The notes under the pieces were generated by a model, which made no database searches, had not been told where the DNA came from, and was given only the letters and a program-made list of their open reading frames with translations. The position numbers were made by a program, and so were the translations under genes. Source: a virus (taxonomy: Duplodnaviria > Heunggongvirae > Uroviricota > Caudoviricetes). From it: DNA of 52,942 nucleotides. Numbering within the stretch: position 1 is the first letter of the stretch; every line of letters starts with the position of its first letter. Positions 29,169 through 52,942 of the stretch are shown here, one piece after another. The stretch is taken from the IMG/VR virus record IMGVR_UViG_2563366966_000001; one strand, given 5' to 3'.

Positions 29169-30192
<1,024 letters not shown>

Positions 30193-33393: not shown

Positions 33394-34443
33394 TTACGCC
33401 AGTACGCCAATTGTCAGCGCGCGATCGATAAAACGAAATATCAGCTCCAGTTGGGAGCCATACTTATCTTCAAATGCCACTGTATCCGTATGCAGCTCGT
33501 TGTGATGCTTTCTGCACAAAGGCAACACAAAGAGATCATGTGCTTTTGTTCCCATTCCGCCCTGCCCGTGACCAATCAGATGATGCGGATCGTCGGCTGG
33601 CATACCGCAGCAAGCACACGGCTGTGTCTTAACCCAACGTGTGTATTTCTCCTTAACCCAGCGGCGACGTTTAGGCAGCTTCATGAAAGATTCCGGAGAC
33701 TCTGGATCAACGGTGATGCTTACCACCGTCTTTTCCTGTGGTGATTTTTGTTGCTGGTGGGCGTAAGGCAACGGTGCAAGATTTTTTGTGCGTTGTTTCA
33801 ATATGCTGGTGGCGGTCTGCTCTCCCGGTACGATGTCGCTTTCGCGGTACACCGAGCAGATTTTTTCCGCTGGTAATCCCAGCGAACGACGCGATACAGC
33901 CTCAGGTAGTGCATCCACCACCTGATTGCAGACCGCCCACCAGGATAATTCAGCCAAAGATAATTCCCGCTCCTGCGTACCGCTTATTGCGTGACGGATG
34001 ACGTCAATCACCCATGCTGTCAGATTTTGTTGAGCAAGCAGCTCCAGTGATTCCGATGTCTGGTCACGCAGTTGGTTGTCGCAGTGCCAGCACAACACCA
34101 TTGCGCCGGTACCATAACGGTGAATGACTGTTTCAGTGTGATGGTAATCGCCATTAGGCCACTGGCAGGATGTAACATGACGTAATAGCCAGTCGGACAA
34201 TGCGCCAACGCCGCCAGCAGCACGAATCACCCGTTCGTTACTAAAAAACGGCAGCAATGTTTTGTCTTCCGCCAGCGGCTGGCGAACGGCAGGAACGACT
34301 CCGGATGGCAGATTACGCATGCTTTTTGGTTCCGGTTCCACCAGCACTCGAGGATTATGAAATATCTGTATGGATTCACGGCCCGGCTTAAGGACCACCA
34401 GCCCAAGCTCAGGCACCAGAACAGGTCTAAGTAATACCCGCAC
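33394..34443 (-). CDS. ydfU: DUF968-family protein YdfU with C-terminal HNH-like Cys/His motif
   Basis: Track ORF 33394..34482; GTG at 34443 lies 1 nt after the rem stop and gives 349 aa; motif CACCGMPADDPHHLIGHG...CRKHHNELH. Confidence 0.7.
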   Translation of the reverse strand: MRVLLRPVLVPELGLVVLKPGRESIQIFHNPRVLVEPEPKSMRNLPSGVVPAVRQPLAEDKTLLPFFSNERVIRAAGGVGALSDWLLRHVTSCQWPNGDYHHTETVIHRYGTGAMVLCWHCDNQLRDQTSESLELLAQQNLTAWVIDVIRHAISGTQERELSLAELSWWAVCNQVVDALPEAVSRRSLGLPAEKICSVYRESDIVPGEQTATSILKQRTKNLAPLPYAHQQQKSPQEKTVVSITVDPESPESFMKLPKRRRWVKEKYTRWVKTQPCACCGMPADDPHHLIGHGQGGMGTKAHDLFVLPLCRKHHNELHTDTVAFEDKYGSQLELIFRFIDRALTIGVLA

Positions 34444-34444
34444 G

Positions 34445-34723
34445 TTACCTCCAGATCCGTTGCTGGAAAGTGCGGGACGCACGTGGTGGGCGTTCGGAAT
34501 AAGGCAGCCTGACAGAGATTATCCAGTGCCGATAGTCGAGACTGAGAGCTTTCTTAACCTCGAACCCGCGCCTGCGGTAAGAATGAATCAGCCATTCGGC
34601 CTGTTCTGCAGTGCATGGAGGGTGCTGGAACCATTCAGACTTGAATGCGTGAGAATACCGCCCGTGCGTGCAGGCAAGAACGGGCGAATTATCAGAATTG
34701 TAATATTTTGCGTTGCGTGCCAT
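34445..34723 (-). CDS. rem: Prophage protein Rem
   Basis: 92-aa ORF matching Qin Rem from memory; start codon not resolved. Confidence 0.7.
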   Translation of the reverse strand: MARNAKYYNSDNSPVLACTHGRYSHAFKSEWFQHPPCTAEQAEWLIHSYRRRGFEVKKALSLDYRHWIISVRLPYSERPPRASRTFQQRIWR

Positions 34724-39000: not shown

Positions 39001-39091
39001 TGAGCTGGCCCCCTGAAATACCAGACAGTAGATGTATCTTAAAATAAGAGATAGGCTTGGATATATGTCTAACACTAGTTCTAATTTTGAG

Positions 39092-39460
39092 ATGGCTGGC
39101 GTTTTGTTAGGAAAAGAGGTGCGTAAACGTAAAACACCTCAGGAAAAAATCGCAATTATTCAACAGACTATGGAGCCGGGCATGACGGTGTCCCACGTGG
39201 CGCGTTTGCATGGAATTCAGCCCAGTCTGTTGTTTAAGTGGAAGAAACAATACCAGGAAGGAAGCCTCACTGCTGTGGCTGCCGGTGAAGACGTTGTTCC
39301 TGCTTCTGAACTGGCCGCTGCAATAAAGCAGATTAATCAGCTTCAGCGTTTACTGGGTAAGAAAACCATGGAAGTTGAGATCCTCAAAGAAGCGGTGGAG
39401 TATGCACAATCGCGAAAATGGATAGCGCATGTGCCCTTGTTACCTTCGGACAAGGAATAG
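39092..39460 (+). CDS. IS2-type OrfA (InsC-like, HTH)
   Basis: Similarity to IS2 InsC ([28 protein letters not shown]); ATG at 39092 chosen by alignment to InsC. Confidence 0.75.
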
Positions 39461-40299
39461 CCCCGGTAAGCCGTGTTCTGGGCGTGTCACGTGCGCAGTT
39501 AACATTACGGATGAAGGCATCTGATAACAAGCCAGATAAACGGCGTCAGAGGCGCGATGAGGCTGCGGATGCAGAAGTCTTATCGCGCATCCTTGATATC
39601 ATTGGCGATATGCCAGCATACGGGTATCGCCGTGTCTGGGCGATACTCAGGCGGCAGTCCCGAAATGAAGGACTACCGTTCGTGAATGCAAAGCGTGTTT
39701 ACCGGATAATGAGCGAAAATAGTCTGTTGTTGTTACATGACAAACCATCACGACGGCAGCGGGAACATAAAGGCCGAATATCGGTGAAGGAAAGCGACCA
39801 GCGTTGGTGTTCCGATGGCTTTGAGTTCGGTTGCGATGATGGCGAAAAACTGCGTGTTACGTTCGTCCTGGACTGTTGCGATCGTGAAGCCATAGACTGG
39901 GCCGCAAGCACGGGAGGTTACGATAAAGCGACAGTGCAGGATGTGATGTTAGGAGCGATAGAAAAACGCTTTGGCGATAAAGTACCGGAACAGTCCATCC
40001 AGTGGCTGACAGATAACGGTTCAGCGTACAGAGCGCATGAAACACGGCAGTTCGCCAGAGAGCTGAATCTGAAGCCCTGCACAACGGCAATCAGTAGCCC
40101 TCAGAGTAATGGAATGGCAGAACGGTTCGTGAAAACGATGAAGGAAGACTACATCGCGTTCATGCCGAAACCGAATGTAAGAACGGCATTGCATAACCTT
40201 GCAGTGGCGATCGAGCATTACAATGAAAACCATCCGCATAGTGCGTTGGGTTATCGCTCTCCGCGAGAATATCGACGTCAGCGGGTAATGTTAACTTAA
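39418..40299 (+). CDS. IS2-type OrfB (InsD-like DDE transposase catalytic domain)
   Basis: 293-aa ORF similar to IS2 InsD; likely expressed as an OrfAB fusion by frameshifting. Confidence 0.75.
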
Positions 40300-40530
40300 G
40301 ATACAACCCCTGTCTGGAAATAAGGGGGCAAGAACAACCGCCATGAACACCCCTAAAAAAAGGGCATTTATATATCCAAATATTAATATCAAAACATCAA
40401 CTTTTTCCATATACCTTGCTGTGAAGATGATGGGCATACATGATGCGAACAACCAGAACGCAACAAACAAAAACTGCAATGCGTTTTTCATTATTCCTCC
40501 TACAATCAATGTGCAATTACATTTAAACAC
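40291..40530 (-). CDS. Small hydrophobic protein whose 3-prime end is replaced by IS2-like sequence
   Basis: ORF of 79 aa; the last 14 codons lie inside the IS; removing the IS and one repeat copy restores a 72-aa ORF ending MCIEYWR. Confidence 0.4.
40337..40351. repeat. 15-bp direct repeat ACCGCCATGAACACC, right flank of IS2-like element
   Basis: Identical 15-mer immediately outside both ends of the IS2-like element. Confidence 0.85.
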
Positions 40531-41173: not shown

Positions 41174-41254
41174 GTAAGCGTCGTCTCAGCACCGTCTGGC
41201 AGATCCTGAAATTCCTGAGAGAATAGTGGACACCAAATATGGTGGACGCAATCC

Positions 41255-41659
41255 ATGAAATCATTAACCGCAGTGCGTAAAAAAAGCCCTAATTATCCCG
41301 TTGAGTTCAAAATCAAAATGGTTGAACTCTCGCATCGACCAGAGATCTCCGTAGCGCAACTCGCTCGTGAGCATGGGATCAACGATAATTTGCTGTTCAA
41401 GTGGCGCCAGTACTGGCGCGAAGGAAAACTACGTCCTCCTTCAACAACAGAAAACAACGTGCCTGAGCTGCTCCCGATAACACTTGATGCCGAAGATGTT
41501 GTCCCTACAACCTCCCCCCGGTCACAACCTGTAGCTGCTGCGACACCTGAATCACTCAATATCAGCTGTGAAGTGACGTTCCGGCACGGATCACTCCGTC
41601 TGAATGGTGCCATCAGCGAAAATATCCTGAACCTGCTGATACGGGAGCTCAAACGTTGA
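41255..41659 (+). CDS. IS66-family TnpA (OrfA)
   Basis: 134-aa ORF, first of the IS66 triplet. Confidence 0.85.
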   Translation: MKSLTAVRKKSPNYPVEFKIKMVELSHRPEISVAQLAREHGINDNLLFKWRQYWREGKLRPPSTTENNVPELLPITLDAEDVVPTTSPRSQPVAAATPESLNISCEVTFRHGSLRLNGAISENILNLLIRELKR

Positions 41660-42003
41660 TCCCATTACCATCAGGGACAAAGATCTGGCTGGTCGCTGGC
41701 ATCACCGATATGAGAAACGGCTTCAACGGCCTGGCGGCAAAGGTGCAGACGACGCTGAAAGACGATCCGATGTCAGGTCACGTTTTTATCTTCCGTGGGC
41801 GTAATGGCAGTCAGGTAAAGCTCCTCTGGTCTACCGGCGATGGACTGTGTCTGCTGACCAAACGGCTGGAGCGCGGCCGCTTCGCCTGGCCGTCAGCCCG
41901 GGATGGCAAAGTGTTCCTCACACCGGCACAGCTGGCGATGCTGCTGGAAGGTATCGACTGGCGGCAGCCTAAAAGACTGCTTACGTCCCTGACTATGTTG
42001 TAA
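41656..42003 (+). CDS. IS66-family TnpB (OrfB)
   Basis: 115-aa ORF overlapping tnpA stop. Confidence 0.85.
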   Translation: MIPLPSGTKIWLVAGITDMRNGFNGLAAKVQTTLKDDPMSGHVFIFRGRNGSQVKLLWSTGDGLCLLTKRLERGRFAWPSARDGKVFLTPAQLAMLLEGIDWRQPKRLLTSLTML

Positions 42004-42051
42004 GCCTCTTTATCCTGGTCGACGCTGAATGAGCCTGGTAATATACCCGGT

Positions 42052-43587
42052 ATGAGCAGCTCACTTCCTGACGATATCAATGCACTGAAACGTCTCCTTG
42101 CCGAACAGGAGGCGCTGAACCGTGCCCTGCAGGAAAAGCTGAACGAGCGTGAACGCGAAATAGACCATCTGCAGGCACAGCTGGATAAGCTGCGCCGGAT
42201 GAACTTCGGCAGCCGCTCGGAAAAAGTCTCCCGTCGTATCGCACAGATGGAAGCTGACCTGAAGGCACTTCAGAAAGAAAGTGATACCCTTACCGGTCGG
42301 GTTGACGACCCGGCCGTGCAGCGCCCGCTGCGTCAAACCCGCACCCGCAAACCGTTCCCCGAATCACTCCCCCGCGATGAAAAACGGCTGCTGCCGGCAG
42401 CGTCATGCTGCCCGGAATGTGGAGGCTCGCTGAGCTATCTGGGTGAGGATGCCGCCGAACAGCTGGAGCTGATGCGCAGCGCCTTCCGGGTTATCCGGAC
42501 TGTACGTGAAAAGCATGCCTGTACTCAGTGCGATGCCATCGTGCAGGCCCCCGCGCCTTCACGGCCCATCGAGCGGGGTATCGCAGGACCGGGGCTGCTG
42601 GCCCGCGTGCTGATCTCAAAGTATGCAGAGCACACCCCGCTGTACCGCCAGTCTGAAATGTACGGCCGCCAGGGCGTGGAGCTGAGTCGTTCACTGCTGT
42701 CGGGCTGGGTGGATGCATGCTGCCGGCTACTGTCACCGCTGGAAGAAGCGCTTCAGGACTATGTGCTGACTGACGGTAAGCTCCATGCTGATGACACGCC
42801 TGTCCCGGTGCTGTTGCCAGGCAATAAGAAAACGAAGACCGGGCGGTTATGGACCTACGTTCGTGACGACCGTAACGCCGGGTCAACGCTGGCGCCGGCG
42901 GTGTGGTTCGCTTACAGCCCGGACAGAAAAGGCATCCATCCGCAGACCCATCTTGCGGGGTTCAGTGGTGTACTGCAGGCGGATGCATACGCCGGGTTCA
43001 ACGAGCTGTACCGGGATGGCCGGATAACGGAAGCCGCCTGTTGGGCTCACGCCCGCCGTAAAATCCACGATGTGCACGTTCGCACCCCGTCAGCCCTGAC
43101 GGAGGAAGCGCTGAAACGGATCGGCGAACTGTACGCCATCGAGGCAGAGATAAGGGGAATGACGGCGGAGCAGCGCCTTGCCGAACGTCAGTTGAAAACG
43201 AAACCGCTGCTGAAATCCCTGGAAAGCTGGCTGCGTGAAAAGATGAAAACCCTGTCGCGACACTCAGAACTGGCGAAAGCGTTCGCATACGCCCTGAACC
43301 AGTGGCCGGCGCTGACGTACTATGCAGATGATGGCTGGGCTGAGGCGGACAATAACATCGCTGAAAATGCGTTGCGGATGGTCAGTCTGGGCCGCAAAAA
43401 CTACCTGTTCTTCGGTTCGGATCATGGAGGAGAGCGGGGAGCGCTGCTGTACAGCCTGATCGGGACGTGCAAACTGAACGGAGTGGAGCCAGAAAGCTAC
43501 CTCCGCTATGTCCTTGACGTCATAGCCGACTGGCCGATAAACCGGGTCGGCGAACTGCTCCCCCTGGCGCGTAGCACTGCCGACTGA
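42052..43587 (+). CDS. IS66-family transposase TnpC
   Basis: 511-aa ORF with N-terminal leucine zipper, CxxC zinc-binding motif and DDE domain typical of IS66 transposases. Confidence 0.9.
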
Positions 43588-43628
43588 ATAACACATCCCC
43601 GTCAATACGGTTCTTGCTGCACGCTTAC

Positions 43629-47795: not shown

Positions 47796-48135
47796 TAGCT
47801 AATCAACAAAGCTAAGGTTAGTAATTAAGGAGTTCTCCACGGGTGAGGTGGAGTGCGTGCGCCGGACACGGGTGCGCATCCGGAACTGACAGTTTACTGA
47901 AAGGATATTTCCCTGAAAAGTCAGACCATAACGCGAAAGCGCACGGCGAGGTAGCTGGTTCATAGATAGCCTGTCGTTAAATTTTCGTCGACCGTGCGCT
48001 TCCGGTTGTGGCAACCCGCGAAATGGCGCGGCGGTAAGTATGGCGGGGTTATTCCTTCCCCGTTGAGGACACCGGGTTGTCAGGTTGACCATACGCTTAA
48101 GTGACAACCCCGCTGCAACGCCCTCTGTTATCAAT

Positions 48136-48193
48136 TTTCTGGTGACGTTTGGCGGTATCAGTTTTACTCCGTGACTGCTCTGCCGCCCTTTTT
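48136..48193 (+). ncRNA. dicF: DicF small regulatory RNA (ftsZ-targeting)
   Basis: Sequence TTTCTGGTGACGTTTGGCGGTATCAGTTTTACTCCGTGACTGCTCTGCCGCCCTTTTT matches DicF as recalled, ending in a terminator hairpin and T-tract. Confidence 0.85.
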
Positions 48194-48362
48194 AAAGTGA
48201 ATTTTGTGATGTGGTGAATGCGGCTGAGCGCACGCGGAACAGTTAAAACCAAAAACAGTGTTATGGGTGGATTCTCTGTATCCGGCGTTAATTGTTAACT
48301 AGTTAACGTCACCTGGAGGCACCAGGCACTGCATCACAAAATTCATTGTTGAGGACGCGATA

Positions 48363-48551
48363 ATGAAAACGTTATTACCAAACGTTAATACGTCTGAAGG
48401 TTGTTTTGAAATTGGTGTCACTATCAGTAACCCAGTATTTACTGAAGATGCCATTAACAAGAGAAAACAAGAACGGGAGCTATTAAATAAAATATGCATT
48501 GTTTCAATGCTGGCTCGTTTACGTCTGATGCCAAAAGGATGTGCACAATGA
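48363..48551 (+). CDS. dicB: Cell division inhibitor DicB
   Basis: 62-aa ORF MKTLLPNVNTSEGCFEIGVTISNPVFTEDAINKRKQERELLNKICIVSMLARLRLMPKGCAQ. Confidence 0.95.
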   Translation: MKTLLPNVNTSEGCFEIGVTISNPVFTEDAINKRKQERELLNKICIVSMLARLRLMPKGCAQ

Positions 48552-48739
48552 ATTCAGCATTTGTGCTTGTTCTGACAGTTTTTCTTGTTTCCGGAGAGCC
48601 AGTTGATATTGCAGTCAGTGTTCACAGGACAATGCAGGAGTGTATGACTGCAGCAACCGAACAGAAAATTCCCGGTAACTGTTACCCGGTCGATAAAGTT
48701 ATTCACCAGGATAATATCGAAATCCCGGCAGGTCTTTAA
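48548..48739 (+). CDS. ydfD: Small membrane lysis protein YdfD
   Basis: 63-aa product from ATG overlapping the dicB stop (ATGA); N-terminal TM segment. Confidence 0.85.
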   Translation: MNSAFVLVLTVFLVSGEPVDIAVSVHRTMQECMTAATEQKIPGNCYPVDKVIHQDNIEIPAGL

Positions 48740-48831
48740 AACAGTTCCGTAATAAATATCCGGTTTCATTCTTATATGCCAGCAATGGCAGGGATTTGTT
48801 CATCCTTAAATCTGTCATGAGGTTAAAACAA

Positions 48832-51303
48832 ATGAGTAAAGTCTTTATTTGCGCCGCTATTCCTGACGAACTGGCAACAAGGGAAGAAGGCGCTGTGGCT
48901 GTAGCCACAGCCATTGAAGCTGGCGACGAACGCCGTGCTCGAGCAAAATTTCACTGGCAATTCCTGGAACATTATCCGGCTGCTCAGGACTGCGCTTATA
49001 AATTTATTGTCTGCGAGGATAAACCTGGCATACCCCGCCCTGCCCTCGATTCATGGGATGCTGAATATATGCAGGAAAACCGCTGGGATGAGGAGTCTGC
49101 TTCTTTTGTCCCGGTTGAGACTGAATCCGATCCGATGAACGTCACTTTTGACAAGCTGGCCCCTGAAGTACAGAACGCTGTCATGGTTAAGTTCGACACA
49201 TGTGAAAACATCACCGTTGATATGGTTATTAGCGCACAGGAATTGTTGCAGGAAGACATGGCAACATTCGACGGACATATCGTTGAAGCGTTGATGAAAA
49301 TGCCAGAAGTTAACGCCATGTATCCGGAGCTTAAGTTGCACGCCATTGGGTGGGTTAAGCATAAATGTATTCCTGGTGCTAAATGGCCCGAAATTCAGGC
49401 AGAGATGCGCATCTGGAAAAAACGTCGCGAAGGTGAACGCAAGGAAACCGGAAAATACACGTCTGTTGTTGATCTCGCCCGCGCCAGAGCCAATCAACAG
49501 TACACTGAAAATTCAACAGGAAAAATCAGCCCGGTCATTGCTGCCATTCATCGCGAATACAAGCAGACATGGAAAACACTGGATGACGAACTGGCCTACG
49601 CTCTCTGGCCTAGTGATGTGGATGCCGGAAACATTGACGGCAGCATCCATCGCTGGGCAAAAAAAGAAGTTATCGACAACGACCGCGAAGACTGGAAGCG
49701 TATCTCGGCATCAATGCGCAAACAGCCTGATGCCCTTCGCTACGACCGCCAAACTATTTTTGGCCTTGTCCGTGAGCGTCCGATCGACATTCACAAAGAT
49801 CCCGTAGCACTGAACAAATATATCTGCGAATACCTGACGACAAAGGGCGTGTTTGAGAATGAAGAAACAGACCTGGGCACTGTTGATGTTCTCCAGTCAT
49901 CAGAAACACAAACTGATGCAGTGGAAACTGAGGTATCTGATATCCCAAAAAATGAAACCGCGCCGGAAGCTGAACCATCTGTAGAGCGTGAGGGGCCGTT
50001 CTATTTCCTCTTCGCAGATAAGGACGGAGAAAAATACGGTCGCGCAAACAAACTCTCTGGTCTGGATAAGGCACTGGCTGCTGGCGCCACTGAAATCACA
50101 AAAGAAGAATATTTTGCCCGAAAAAATGGCACATACACGGGCTTACCGCAAAATGTAGATACCGCTGAAGATTCAGAACAACCAGAGCCGATAAAAGTTA
50201 CCGCTGACGAAGTAAACAAAATTATGCAGGCAGCCAATATCAGCCAGCCTGACGCCGATAAGTTGCTTGCTGCATCACGTGGTGAATTTGTTGAAGGGAT
50301 TAGTGACCCGAATGATCCGAAATGGGTTAAGGGGCTCCAGACCCGCGATTCTGTGAACCAGAACCAGCATGAATCGGAACGGAACTACCAAAAAGCGGAA
50401 CAAAACAGTCCAAATGCGTTACAAAACGAGCCAGAAACGAAACAGCCTGAACCAGTAGCGCAACAGGAAGTGGAAAAAGTCTGCACCGCCTGCGGTCAGA
50501 CCGGCGGCGGCAACTGCCCTGATTGTGGCGCGGTGATGGGCGACGCAACATACCAAGAAACATTCGATGAAGAGTATCAGGTTGAAGTTCAGGAAGATGA
50601 TCCGGAGGAAATGGAAGGCGCTGAACATCCACACAAGGAGAACACTGGCGGCAATCAGCATCACAATAGCGATAATGAAACTGGCGAGACGGCAGATCAC
50701 CCAATTAAGGTGAACGGTCATCACGAAATCACATCCACCAGCAGGACGTGTGACCATCTAATGATCGACCTTGAAACCATGGGAAAAAATCCTGATGCCC
50801 CGATCATCTCAATAGGTGCAATATTTTTCGATCCGCAAACCGGAGATATGGGACCGGAATTTAGTAAGACTATCGATCTGGAAACTGCTGGCGGAGTCAT
50901 TGATCGGGACACCATTAAATGGTGGCTTAAGCAATCACGCGAAGCGCAATCTGCCATTATGACCGATGAAATCCCGTTAGATGATGCACTGTTACAATTG
51001 CGAGAATTTATCGACGAAAACTCCGGTGAATTTTTTGTTCAGGTTTGGGGAAATGGAGCCAACTTCGACAACACGATTTTGCGCCGTTCATACGAACGGC
51101 AGGGGATCCCCTGCCCGTGGCGTTACTACAACGATCGCGATGTACGCACAATCGTTGAGCTGGGGAAAGCCATAGACTTCGATGCCAGAACGGCTATTCC
51201 ATTCGAAGGTGAGCGCCATAATGCACTTGATGACGCCCGTTACCAGGCAAAATACGTTTCAGTTATCTGGCAAAAACTGATCCCGAGTCAGGCTGATTCT
51301 TAA
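48832..51303 (+). CDS. ydfE: YdfE-like large protein with C-terminal DEDDh 3-prime to 5-prime exonuclease domain (intact)
   Basis: Track ORF 48796..51303 starts with TTG; ATG at 48832 has GAGG 9 nt upstream; C-terminus has Exo I (IDLETMG), Exo II (WGNGANFD) and Exo III (HNALDDARY) motifs; central CTACG...CPDCG zinc ribbon. Confidence 0.8.
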   Translation: MSKVFICAAIPDELATREEGAVAVATAIEAGDERRARAKFHWQFLEHYPAAQDCAYKFIVCEDKPGIPRPALDSWDAEYMQENRWDEESASFVPVETESDPMNVTFDKLAPEVQNAVMVKFDTCENITVDMVISAQELLQEDMATFDGHIVEALMKMPEVNAMYPELKLHAIGWVKHKCIPGAKWPEIQAEMRIWKKRREGERKETGKYTSVVDLARARANQQYTENSTGKISPVIAAIHREYKQTWKTLDDELAYALWPSDVDAGNIDGSIHRWAKKEVIDNDREDWKRISASMRKQPDALRYDRQTIFGLVRERPIDIHKDPVALNKYICEYLTTKGVFENEETDLGTVDVLQSSETQTDAVETEVSDIPKNETAPEAEPSVEREGPFYFLFADKDGEKYGRANKLSGLDKALAAGATEITKEEYFARKNGTYTGLPQNVDTAEDSEQPEPIKVTADEVNKIMQAANISQPDADKLLAASRGEFVEGISDPNDPKWVKGLQTRDSVNQNQHESERNYQKAEQNSPNALQNEPETKQPEPVAQQEVEKVCTACGQTGGGNCPDCGAVMGDATYQETFDEEYQVEVQEDDPEEMEGAEHPHKENTGGNQHHNSDNETGETADHPIKVNGHHEITSTSRTCDHLMIDLETMGKNPDAPIISIGAIFFDPQTGDMGPEFSKTIDLETAGGVIDRDTIKWWLKQSREAQSAIMTDEIPLDDALLQLREFIDENSGEFFVQVWGNGANFDNTILRRSYERQGIPCPWRYYNDRDVRTIVELGKAIDFDARTAIPFEGERHNALDDARYQAKYVSVIWQKLIPSQADS

Positions 51304-51375: not shown

Positions 51376-51627
51376 ATGAGCGAAGTAATCATGATTGTCT
51401 CTCCCGGCAAATGGGTATCCGAAGAGCAGTTAATTGCGCTGAAAGGAATAAAAAAAGGTACGTTAAAAAAGGCCCGGGAAAAATCGTTTATGGAAGGAAG
51501 GGAATATAAGCATGTCGCTCATGACGGTATGCCATGGGATAACAGTCCATGCTTTTACAACCTGGAAGAAATTGATCGCTGGATTGAGCGCCAGGCATCA
51601 GCGAGACCAAGACGTCATCTTACTTGA
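51376..51627 (+). CDS. xis: Excisionase-like protein
   Basis: 83-aa ORF immediately upstream of int. Confidence 0.6.
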   Translation: MSEVIMIVSPGKWVSEEQLIALKGIKKGTLKKAREKSFMEGREYKHVAHDGMPWDNSPCFYNLEEIDRWIERQASARPRRHLT

Positions 51628-51661
51628 CTAAAAGCCACACTAACTAATGAGAGAAGTTGAA

Positions 51662-52942
51662 ATGAAATATCCGACAGGCGTGGAAAACCATGGAGGGAAA
51701 TTACGTATCTGGTTTGTTTATAAAGACGTAAGAGTCAGGGAAAATCTGGGGGTTCCTGACACAGCAAAAAACAGGCGCGTTGCAGGTGAACTACGCTCCT
51801 CTGTTTGTTACGCAATAAAAACTGGTGTTTTCGACTATGCAAAACAGTTTCCCTCCTCACGCAATCTGGAAAAATTTGGTGAGGCCCGACAAGATTTAAC
51901 CATAAAAGAACTGGCTGAAAAATTTCTGGCACTGAAAGAAACTGAAGTCGCCAAAACATCACTCAACACATACCGTGCCGTCATCAAAAATATCCTGAGC
52001 ATAATCGGTGAAAAAAATCTTGCCTCATCGATTAATAAAGAAAAATTACTGGAGGTTCGTAAAGAGTTACTGACTGGATACCAGATCCCCAAAAGTAACT
52101 ATATTGTTACACAACCAGGGAGATCGGCTGTAACTGTAAATAATTACATGACAAATCTTAACGCCGTGTTCCAGTTTGGTGTTGATAACGGTTACCTGGC
52201 AGATAATCCGTTTAAGGGGATCTCGCCATTAAAGGAATCAAGAACCATTCCGGATCCTCTTTCGCGGGAAGAATTTATCCGTCTTATCGATGCGTGCAGA
52301 AATCAGCAAGCAAAAAATTTATGGTGTGTTTCTGTTTATACTGGAGTTCGCCCTGGTGAGCTGTGTGCACTTGGATGGGAGGACATAGATCTGAAAAATG
52401 GAACAATGATGATCAGGAGAAATTTAGCAAAAGACCGTTTCACGGTACCAAAAACACAGGCGGGAACCAATCGGGTCATTCATCTTATTAAGCCAGCAAT
52501 CGACGCTCTCCGGAGTCAGATGACATTAACGAGACTGAGCAAAGAGCATATCATTGATGTTCACCTCAGAGAGTATGGCAGAACAGAAAAACAAAAATGC
52601 ACCTTTGTTTTTCAACCTGAAGTGTCAGCGAGAGTAAAAAATTATGGTGACCATTTTACCGTTGACTCAATAAGGCAGATGTGGGACGCAGCGATAAAAC
52701 GTGCCGGACTCCGCCATCGAAAATCATATCAGTCGAGACATACTTATGCCTGCTGGTCGCTGACAGCTGGTGCTAACCCGGCATTTATAGCAAACCAGAT
52801 GGGCCATGCAGATGCGCAAATGGTATTTCAGGTATACGGAAAATGGATGTCTGAAAACAATAATGCACAGGTAGCTTTGTTAAATACACAGTTAAGCGAG
52901 TTTGCCCCAACCATGCCCCATAACGAAGCAATGAAAAATTAA
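51662..52942 (+). CDS. int: Tyrosine recombinase (phage integrase)
   Basis: ATG at 51662 with GAGAAG RBS; C-terminal catalytic residues R...HxxR...Y (SRHTYACW...HADAQMVFQVYGKW); stop codon is the last 3 bases of the window. Confidence 0.9.
   Translation: MKYPTGVENHGGKLRIWFVYKDVRVRENLGVPDTAKNRRVAGELRSSVCYAIKTGVFDYAKQFPSSRNLEKFGEARQDLTIKELAEKFLALKETEVAKTSLNTYRAVIKNILSIIGEKNLASSINKEKLLEVRKELLTGYQIPKSNYIVTQPGRSAVTVNNYMTNLNAVFQFGVDNGYLADNPFKGISPLKESRTIPDPLSREEFIRLIDACRNQQAKNLWCVSVYTGVRPGELCALGWEDIDLKNGTMMIRRNLAKDRFTVPKTQAGTNRVIHLIKPAIDALRSQMTLTRLSKEHIIDVHLREYGRTEKQKCTFVFQPEVSARVKNYGDHFTVDSIRQMWDAAIKRAGLRHRKSYQSRHTYACWSLTAGANPAFIANQMGHADAQMVFQVYGKWMSENNNAQVALLNTQLSEFAPTMPHNEAMKN

Follow-up and report, generated by a model that had tools for sequence, protein, structure and literature searches.

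The window analysed here is the whole 52,942-nt record IMGVR_UViG_2563366966_000001, a full-length Qin-type lambdoid prophage, and the gene under study encodes an 823-residue YdfE-type protein near its right end. The protein is composed of a RecE-type scaffold and a C-terminal DEDDh (DnaQ-like) exonuclease head, joined at a fixed junction. The type of head co-varies with the partner gene, with no exception: PD-(D/E)XK heads are accompanied by the annealing protein RecT, and DEDDh heads by no single-strand annealing protein (SSAP). RecE and RecT are a standard recombineering tool. The N-terminal domain of RecE is nevertheless still of unknown function, apart from enhancing linear–linear recombination (PMC11611040, a 2023 review). 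Since the scaffold appears to be used here with a nuclease of opposite polarity and with no annealing protein, its role would not be specific to 5′–3′ resection or to the loading of RecT. The locus offers a clean natural experiment on the RecE N-terminus, although several ordinary explanations of the gene remain. Found in three of every four complete genomes, the gene is among the most widespread prophage genes of Escherichia coli; the functions ascribed to it are putative. The sequence itself, which is public and very common, the Pfam models of the scaffold and the tabulation of a nuclease-only phage class were already known. We did not find it stated in the available literature that YdfE-type proteins are RecE scaffolds with a head of reversed polarity at a fixed junction, nor that head type strictly co-varies with the presence of RecT.

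Scaffold, head and module junction

A search of residues 1–640 against 5.8 billion proteins revealed two architectures on scaffolds 86–97% identical to that of the window. Proteins of the PF16473-headed type have 812–826 residues, and one of their clusters alone contains 23,183 members. Those of the PF12684-headed type, which carry the RecE-type PD-(D/E)XK domain, have 900 residues and scaffolds 89–97% identical to the window's. In all three comparisons with PD-(D/E)XK-headed genes (loci L013 and L014 and K-12 Rac) DNA homology stops at base 50698, and up to this point identity is 94% and 98% for the two chimeric loci and 78% for Rac recE (over 50256–50698). The position corresponds to RecE residue ~587, directly before the RecE PVIVEDIEPGIYYG segment; the RecE nuclease domain has been placed at residues 564–866 (PMC11611040). 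Base 50698 is the precise module junction where heads were exchanged. The chimeric loci, arranged as dicB–ydfD–(scaffold + PF12684)–recT (overlapping)–lar–rcbA–xis–int at ttcA, are a Qin-like left part joined within the gene to a Rac-like right part. A Chi site (50735–50742, minus strand) lies 37 nt past the junction; no tie between this site and the head swap is claimed, as Chi in this orientation should promote exchange beyond itself, towards xis/int.

The sequence-only reading of this gene had regarded the region before the exonuclease as unknown, a view that blastp, NCBIfam and hhalign overturn. Residues 262–627 align with residues 278–592 of K-12 RecE at 39% identity (blastp, E = 2e-61), and the NCBIfam RecE model NF007259 (PRK09709) matches residues 246–623 only, to model positions 271–600, with a score of 281.6 against an equivalog cut-off of 1269. 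The last 150 scaffold residues, zinc ribbon included, are nearly identical to RecE. The first 240 residues gave no BLAST match to RecE; when 20 YdfE_N-type segments were compared with 20 segments of the RecE N-terminal type (PF06630) in hhalign, the two kinds of module matched with 95.7% probability (E = 9e-9, 207 columns). On the strength of these matches, the N-terminal ~625 residues are a RecE-type scaffold, homologous along its whole length to the non-catalytic N-terminal ~590 residues of RecE. PF06630 ('Exonuc_VIII') was considered as a third catalytic head and ruled out, being an alternative N-terminal scaffold module. Relatives 86–97% identical over the scaffold carry PF27430 (YdfE_N) and PF27432 (YdfE_C) in precomputed Pfam assignments; both families exist in newer Pfam releases.

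The domain and structure prediction that the earlier reading had proposed for residues 1–640 was run with AlphaFold2 on a 58-sequence alignment. The model contains three confident domains, a weaker two-helix segment with the ribbon, and disordered acidic linkers (Table 1). Domain 2 is the best-conserved block of the family, with the motif DREDWKRxS ... YDRxTIF, and domain 3 is flanked by acidic disordered linkers at residues 345–384 and 439–456. The two-helix segment is nearly identical in K-12 RecE. The Cys4 ribbon, which the same reading had correctly placed before the exonuclease, corresponds to RecE residues 516–530 and is part of the common scaffold; only six of 47 long family representatives possess it. 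The protein is strongly acidic throughout (net charge −65, pI 4.6), which speaks against a scaffold that binds DNA by simple electrostatic attraction. A sequence search of the Protein Data Bank (PDB) with the scaffold gave no match, and the scaffold model had no informative structural relative in PDB or BFVD. The family is narrow: an exhaustive HMMER search of 1.84 billion cluster representatives yielded 247 matching clusters, and the heads among the 47 long representatives were DEDDh in 6, RecE-type in 12 and none recognised in 29.

The C-terminal assignment of the earlier reading, a DEDDh exonuclease with Exo I, II and III motifs that are not degenerate, holds. The head matches Pfam PF16473 over profile positions 2–177 of 177 (E = 2.4e-67; 226.5 bits against a cut-off of 27). 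Alignment of the head to T4 DexA and to three homologues that phages encode as separate proteins puts D646, E648, D746, H796 and D801 at the invariant catalytic positions, on DexA D7, E9, D119, H186 and D191, so that the residues of Exo I (DxE), Exo II (D) and Exo III (Hx4D) are all present, and the pentad is kept in 103–105 of 105 family sequences. The window protein has no Pfam match to PF12684 (PD-(D/E)XK), and the RecE head found no match in the window by tblastn. With a DEDDh head, 5′-to-3′ exonuclease activity on double-stranded DNA is not expected, and the protein is most likely a 3′–5′ DNA exonuclease. RefSeq labels for such proteins vary between 'exonuclease', '3′-5′ exonuclease' and '3′-5′ exoribonuclease', the last of which is putative. 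Several phage records (L001 20001–22472, L008 3714–6155, L016 6001–8472) call the DEDDh-headed protein 'exodeoxyribonuclease VIII', a misannotation in that the scaffold is common with RecE and the RecE catalytic domain is absent.

Selection has maintained both ends of the protein. In comparison with phage Evi, the ratio of nonsynonymous to synonymous substitution rates (dN/dS) is 0.08 in domain 1. It is 0.15 in the head, at a dS of 1.1, and 0.75 in the segment containing the ribbon and acidic tail; the scaffold N-terminal domain and the head are under purifying selection. The roughly fivefold change in dS along the gene is the signature of a recombination mosaic. Phage 813R8 (L008 3714–6155) is 94–100% identical over residues 471–823, which cover the DEDDh head and the ribbon region, and has its N-terminal module swapped for a RecE-type (PF06630-like) one, so that the scaffold is mosaic at both ends. 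Of 5,426 complete E. coli genomes, 4,055 (75%) contain the head DNA, in up to seven copies each, and 1,576 contain at least 80% of the 6.6-kb locus. Identical or near-identical genes are carried by the isolated or inducible phages PhiR42_1, HannyBb, Tritos, Evi and mEp460_ev081. The idea that an intact copy is a special opportunity for study must therefore be given up. A different explanation of this gene, that it is a neutral or decaying passenger, a by-product of recombination that adds nothing to phage or host fitness, would suit the ease with which disrupted copies are found (K-12 ydfE, IS2; PPompW, frameshift; 606R7, split; cS76a, IS66 insertion) and the many truncated clusters among the protein search results. 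It is very improbable in view of the purifying selection on domain 1 and the head, the conserved catalytic pentad, and the retention of the gene in functional inducible phages and in most complete E. coli genomes.

Annealing partner, Chi sites and phage class

The earlier reading had stated that no Bet/RecT-type annealing gene accompanies the exonuclease, and every search of the window agrees. With Rac RecT, lambda Bet, the P22-like Erf-type SSAP of epsilon34 and Bas106, SSB, Gam, Abc2 and lambda Exo as tblastn queries, nothing better than E = 0.09 was obtained over the whole window, while all positive controls worked. Pfam and PHROG scans of the early-region open reading frames (ORFs) found no annealing protein; these ORFs encode a replication initiator, YdaT, DUF977, a methyltransferase, a DUF968/HNH protein, Q and Ydf proteins. 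The genome annotation of PhiR42_1 contains no SSAP. The exonuclease stop and xis are just 72 nt apart, which leaves no room for a recT-like gene; the gap from head to xis is given as 76 nt in 52 related loci.

The lack of an SSAP is not peculiar to the window copy; it characterises the family as a whole and varies together with the type of head. We examined 94 loci of scaffold relatives, 14 from species-representative genomes and 80 from IMG/VR, located by block alignment with 12 sequences; many of them are closely related, and the counts from this association test overstate the number of independent events. DEDDh heads occur in 72 of the 94 (37 distinct head sequences), and 64 of these have at least 900 nt after the head. 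No RecT, Bet, Erf-type protein, Gam or Abc2 was found anywhere in any of these 64 informative loci. DicB lies upstream in 68 of the 72, and the layout without an SSAP is the same in phages Evi, PPompW, 813R8, 606R7 and Tritos. In the PD-(D/E)XK-headed loci L013, L014 and L020 and in Rac, RecT is directly downstream. L020, which encodes a more distant protein, was considered as an exception to this rule and dismissed; its downstream ORF is a divergent RecT that matches Pfam and was missed by BLAST.

Divergent headless scaffold proteins of 730–745 residues were also observed in Pantoea, Raoultella, Citrobacter and Escherichia whittamii. In these loci (L023 6371–9168, L026 6272–9027, L029 8559–9113 and L031 6299–9078) a gene of the Sipho_Gp157 family (PF05565) then follows. 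The headless protein with Gp157 is a third partner arrangement and may match the 'RecE-2' proteins without a nuclease domain noted in a 2025 Genome Research survey (PMC12315714).

The same survey lists DnaQ-like nucleases as one nuclease type of lambdoid Rec modules, the epsilon34 one being accepted, and its Table 1 describes a 'Tritos' type with a nuclease only, comprising four phages with Chi counts of 21/6 to 7/2 (PMC12315714). The Tritos protein is not dissected in the main text of that paper. The Tritos gene is ~99% identical to the window gene, and the two loci are collinear, with the same dicF–dicB–ydfD–exonuclease–xis–int layout. Chi octamers (GCTGGTGG) occur in the window at 29771, 33753, 33805, 34338, 34395, 43801 and 50735, seven against 1.75 expected, a number that none of 100 shuffles reached. 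The late-gene strand carries five of them, which all fall in the interval from the inferred cos (~26.6 kb) to int, and the other strand carries two; the 25-kb structural arm contains none. The Tritos class is marked by at least four Chi sites on the presumed RecBCD-active strand, with entry from the right cos end, where the window has five. The window is a member of this nuclease-only, Chi-containing class. Weighing against the role proposed below, the Chi counts of the window (5 top, 2 bottom) are under the Tritos-class range and their orientation depends on a cos position inferred from the terminase genes, and 'sporadic' DnaQ-type genes very near int were not counted as Rec-module members (PMC12315714). 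The description of the gene as an orphan prophage exonuclease is thus right in that it has no annealing partner, whereas the arrangement as such had already been catalogued as the nuclease-only Tritos class (PMC12315714). As a separate observation, four of the seven Chi sites, two per orientation, lie within a 1.1-kb gene of the DUF968/HNH-endonuclease-like YdfU family (33394–34482, minus strand).

Proposed role and alternatives

On balance the gene product is probably a RecE-scaffold nuclease with a DexA-like DEDDh head that would process DNA 3′ ends after induction, in a phage relying on host RecBCD and RecA; we hold this with slightly more confidence than doubt. The protein would be a nuclease of the early left operon of a Qin/Tritos-type lambdoid phage. 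Its architecture is modular: a non-catalytic RecE-type scaffold, with three acidic domains that fold, acidic linkers that are disordered and, optionally, a Cys4 ribbon, carries an exchanged head. The DexA/DnaQ-like DEDDh 3′-to-5′ head stands in place of the PD-(D/E)XK 5′-to-3′ head of RecE. Its targets would be DNA 3′ ends and not RNA. Transcription with dicF–dicB–ydfD from the DicA-repressed promoter would bring it into action after induction or infection, not in the lysogen. The recombination-dependent DNA metabolism of the phage would run on host RecBCD and RecA, as suggested by the lack of an SSAP, SSB or anti-RecBCD gene together with the correctly oriented Chi sites, and the exonuclease would act on the DNA of phage or host, trimming or resecting its 3′ ends rather than feeding an annealing protein. 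T4 DexA, with roles in double-strand-break repair and host-DNA scavenging, provides an analogy for such trimming. The scaffold would function independently of nuclease polarity and of RecT, and, because it is strongly acidic, protein–protein targeting seems the most likely mode.

Some observations do not sit easily with this proposal. Pfam and PGAP call the domain an exoribonuclease, and whether a DEDDh enzyme acts on DNA or RNA cannot be read from its sequence. A search of the ydfE literature found no functional study. In addition, 3′–5′ exonucleases usually depress homologous recombination (PMC12315714), so that a pro-recombination role is not obvious; a phage 3′–5′ exonuclease is counter-intuitive in a lambdoid class thought to depend on host RecBCD and Chi.

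The choice of substrate bears on the first alternative, an RNA-directed exonuclease, acting on RNA 3′ ends as either an antiviral nuclease of the TONDO/ISG20 kind, for which RNA phages would be the target and the scaffold the 'auxiliary domain', or an enzyme that processes phage or host transcripts, for example the dicF precursor. The top Pfam family is indeed named 3′-5′ exoribonuclease Rv2179c-like, and the gene would be co-transcribed with dicF, a small RNA (sRNA) requiring 3′ processing. There is also a precedent in DEDDh exonucleases from prophages and plasmids that bear a variety of auxiliary domains and block MS2 and Qbeta, found in a screen limited to proteins below 500 residues (PMC13344964, a 2026 preprint). 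However, the only solved relatives of the head by sequence are structures of T4 DexA, a DNase (8KEL and 8KEN; phmmer against PDB sequences, E = 1.5e-6), and Rv2179c was not among the matches at E ≤ 0.01. A literature search linking Rv2179c with phages found nothing relevant. Moreover, epsilon34 and Bas106 encode close standalone homologues (56–59% identity with the head) within their DNA recombination modules (kil–SSAP–SSB–DEDDh–abc2), and the scaffold is common with a double-stranded-DNA exonuclease, the heads being exchanged at a fixed junction. Standalone homologues in Rec modules and a scaffold otherwise serving a double-stranded-DNA exonuclease favour DNA as the probable substrate, and the RNA-directed explanation seems quite unlikely.

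Superinfection defence of the HREX type is the other alternative, in which the lysogen or the induced cell would be protected by a head that selectively degrades the 5-hydroxymethylcytosine (5hmC) DNA of T-even phages. The head is a homologue of DexA, and EcD, an E. coli DexA homologue, degrades T4 DNA and protects E. coli (PMC12153337). Bacterial DexA homologues are commonest in Escherichia (PMC12153337), and the abundant YdfE-type family is probably among them. The 5hmC-reading residues of DexA are, however, not kept: W152 falls on Y766 (Y/H/S/C/T in the family) and D169 on A780 (T/A/S/V/I), positions checked in 105 relatives, although with a DexA–head alignment only 26% identical this mapping is not secure. 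D90, tetramer-forming in DexA and Ala in EcD, is retained here as D718, which is kept in 98 of 105 relatives; in the same alignment DexA S87 falls on P715. Further, no separate promoter was detected for the gene, which lies in the dicB operon under DicA repression and should be silent in lysogens. PADLOC yields a single, generic match to a Cas-associated DEDDh family (E = 1.8e-5). Defence would also leave the 625-residue RecE scaffold and its interchange with the RecE head unexplained. We consider the HREX explanation improbable.

A bolder version of the 3′-end-processing proposal, which we regard as unlikely though worth stating, is that the scaffold would be a self-contained module, one that needs no annealing protein and works whatever the polarity of the nuclease. 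One form of this would be an acidic platform, possibly DNA-mimicking or partner-binding, that takes the head it carries to DNA ends handled by host RecBCD, SSB or the replisome. If it were so, phages of the Qin/Tritos type would link 3′–5′ end processing to the Chi/RecBCD recombination of the host, a pathway that has not been described for phages, and the head-swap series (PD-(D/E)XK with RecT, DEDDh alone, headless with Gp157) would open the N-terminal 600 residues of RecE to study. If the protein is merely a defence or scavenging nuclease, the finding is routine.

The locus and its relation to known systems

The description of the gene as an intact, YdfE-like ORF whose K-12 counterpart is an insertion-disrupted pseudogene is sound in all parts. 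The frame is open over 48796–51303 on the plus strand (835 codons), and the ATG at 48832, preceded by a Shine–Dalgarno sequence, is also the start used in RefSeq WP_000048342.1 and in the phage records. The identical protein is found in phage PhiR42_1 and as WP_000048342.1. Residues 1–256 are 100% identical to the K-12 ydfE product as far as the IS2E junction, where the K-12 gene is interrupted. The coordinates of the gene, its parts and its neighbours are collected in Table 1.

Table 1. Positions in the window of the YdfE-type gene, its modules and the neighbouring genes
Feature	Positions	Strand	Basis
Early-operon genes upstream: dicF sRNA (48137–48188), dicB (48363–48551), ydfD (48548–48739)	48137–48739	+	Rfam; RefSeq annotation of identical locus; Pfam DUF1482
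GAGG Shine–Dalgarno sequence, 9 nt 5′ of ATG	48819–48822	+	Sequence read
Complete YdfE-type gene, 823 residues, RecE-like scaffold and DEDDh head	48832–51303 (including stop)	+	ORF list; full-length PHROG phrog_2082 match
Scaffold domain 1, residues 1–205 (YdfE_N), alpha/beta plus helical fold, predicted local distance difference test (pLDDT) >90	48832–49446	+	AlphaFold2, hhalign; distant RecE PF06630 homologue
Scaffold domain 2, residues 240–344, helical, pLDDT ~95	49549–49863	+	AlphaFold2; alignments including RecE
Scaffold domain 3, residues 385–438, small beta-hairpin/helix, pLDDT 85–93	49984–50145	+	AlphaFold2; charge analysis
Two-helix segment, residues 457–501 (...DKLLAASRGEFVEGISDPNDPKWVKG), pLDDT 52–74	50200–50334	+	Three-way alignment; AlphaFold2
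Cys4 zinc ribbon CTACGQTGGGNCPDC, residues 551–565	50482–50526	+	Motif search; alignment
Module junction, codon ~622 (...ETGETAD), ~18 residues before the DEDDh domain	50696–50700	+	blastn end-points; protein alignment
Predicted DEDDh (DnaQ-like, DexA/Rv2179c-type) 3′–5′ exonuclease head, residues 642–813	50755–51270	+	Pfam PF16473; residue mapping
Catalytic codons D646, E648, D746, H796, D801	50767–50769, 50773–50775, 51067–51069, 51217–51219, 51232–51234	+	
xis (51376–51627) and int (51662–52942), downstream of the exonuclease	51376–52942	+	ORF list; annotation

The local gene order is dicC (minus strand), dicA, ydfA, ydfB, ydfC, dicF, dicB, ydfD, exonuclease, xis and int, so that the exonuclease gene, between dicB/ydfD and xis/int, occupies the slot of recE in Rac. 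DicF is intact and lies 5′ of dicB (Rfam RF00039, 76.7 bits). A scan of the plus strand from ydfD to the gene found no sigma-70-like promoter, and no strong terminator was found before the gene. The simplest reading is therefore that the gene forms the distal portion of the leftward early operon, which DicA represses. Two extra insertions aside, the window matches PhiR42_1, an inducible phage of ECOR13, at 98–100% identity, and an identical locus in another strain adjoins rspB, the position of Qin in K-12. The insertions relative to PhiR42_1 lie at ~39001–40336 and ~41175–43628; the second holds a 511-residue ORF (42052–43587), probably an IS66-family transposase according to the annotation of a related strain. 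A 111-residue ORF (47799–48134, minus strand), antisense to the ydfC–dicF interval, has no Pfam or PHROG match and is probably not a gene, although ORFs are annotated in this region in one phage record.

Among known systems, EcD/HREX and the TONDOs are likewise DEDDh exonucleases on E. coli mobile elements, and the TONDOs, compared here by description only, also have variable auxiliary domains. They are small proteins (<500 residues), however, whereas the window gene is in a repressed lytic operon and not in a defence island; the HREX determinants are not conserved in its head. T4 DexA (8KEL/8KEN) is the closest solved relative of the head and is also phage-encoded, with the five catalytic residues in common. 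It differs in being a standalone protein of 227 residues with extra loops and no RecE-like scaffold, in its low identity to the head (26%), and in the 5hmC-reading residues W152 and D169, which the window head does not conserve. Closer in sequence (56–59% identity) are epsilon34 gp34 and Bas106_0031, which are encoded in the early left operon of temperate enterobacterial phages. These are proteins of ~182 residues without a scaffold, encoded between SSB and abc2 beside an SSAP, whereas the window gene is scaffold-fused, adjoins xis/int and belongs to a phage without SSAP, SSB or Abc2. With the Tritos class the window agrees in kind, having no annealing protein, SSB or anti-RecBCD gene either. 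RecE (exonuclease VIII) of Rac is the counterpart of the remainder of the protein. It differs in its PD-(D/E)XK 5′–3′ head and in RecT, the window protein having a predicted DEDDh 3′–5′ head and no RecT. Nevertheless, the two scaffolds are homologous virtually from end to end and have the Cys4 ribbon and acidic linkers in common, the gene lies in the same slot between kil-type genes and xis/int, and natural chimeras join a scaffold of the window type to the RecE head.

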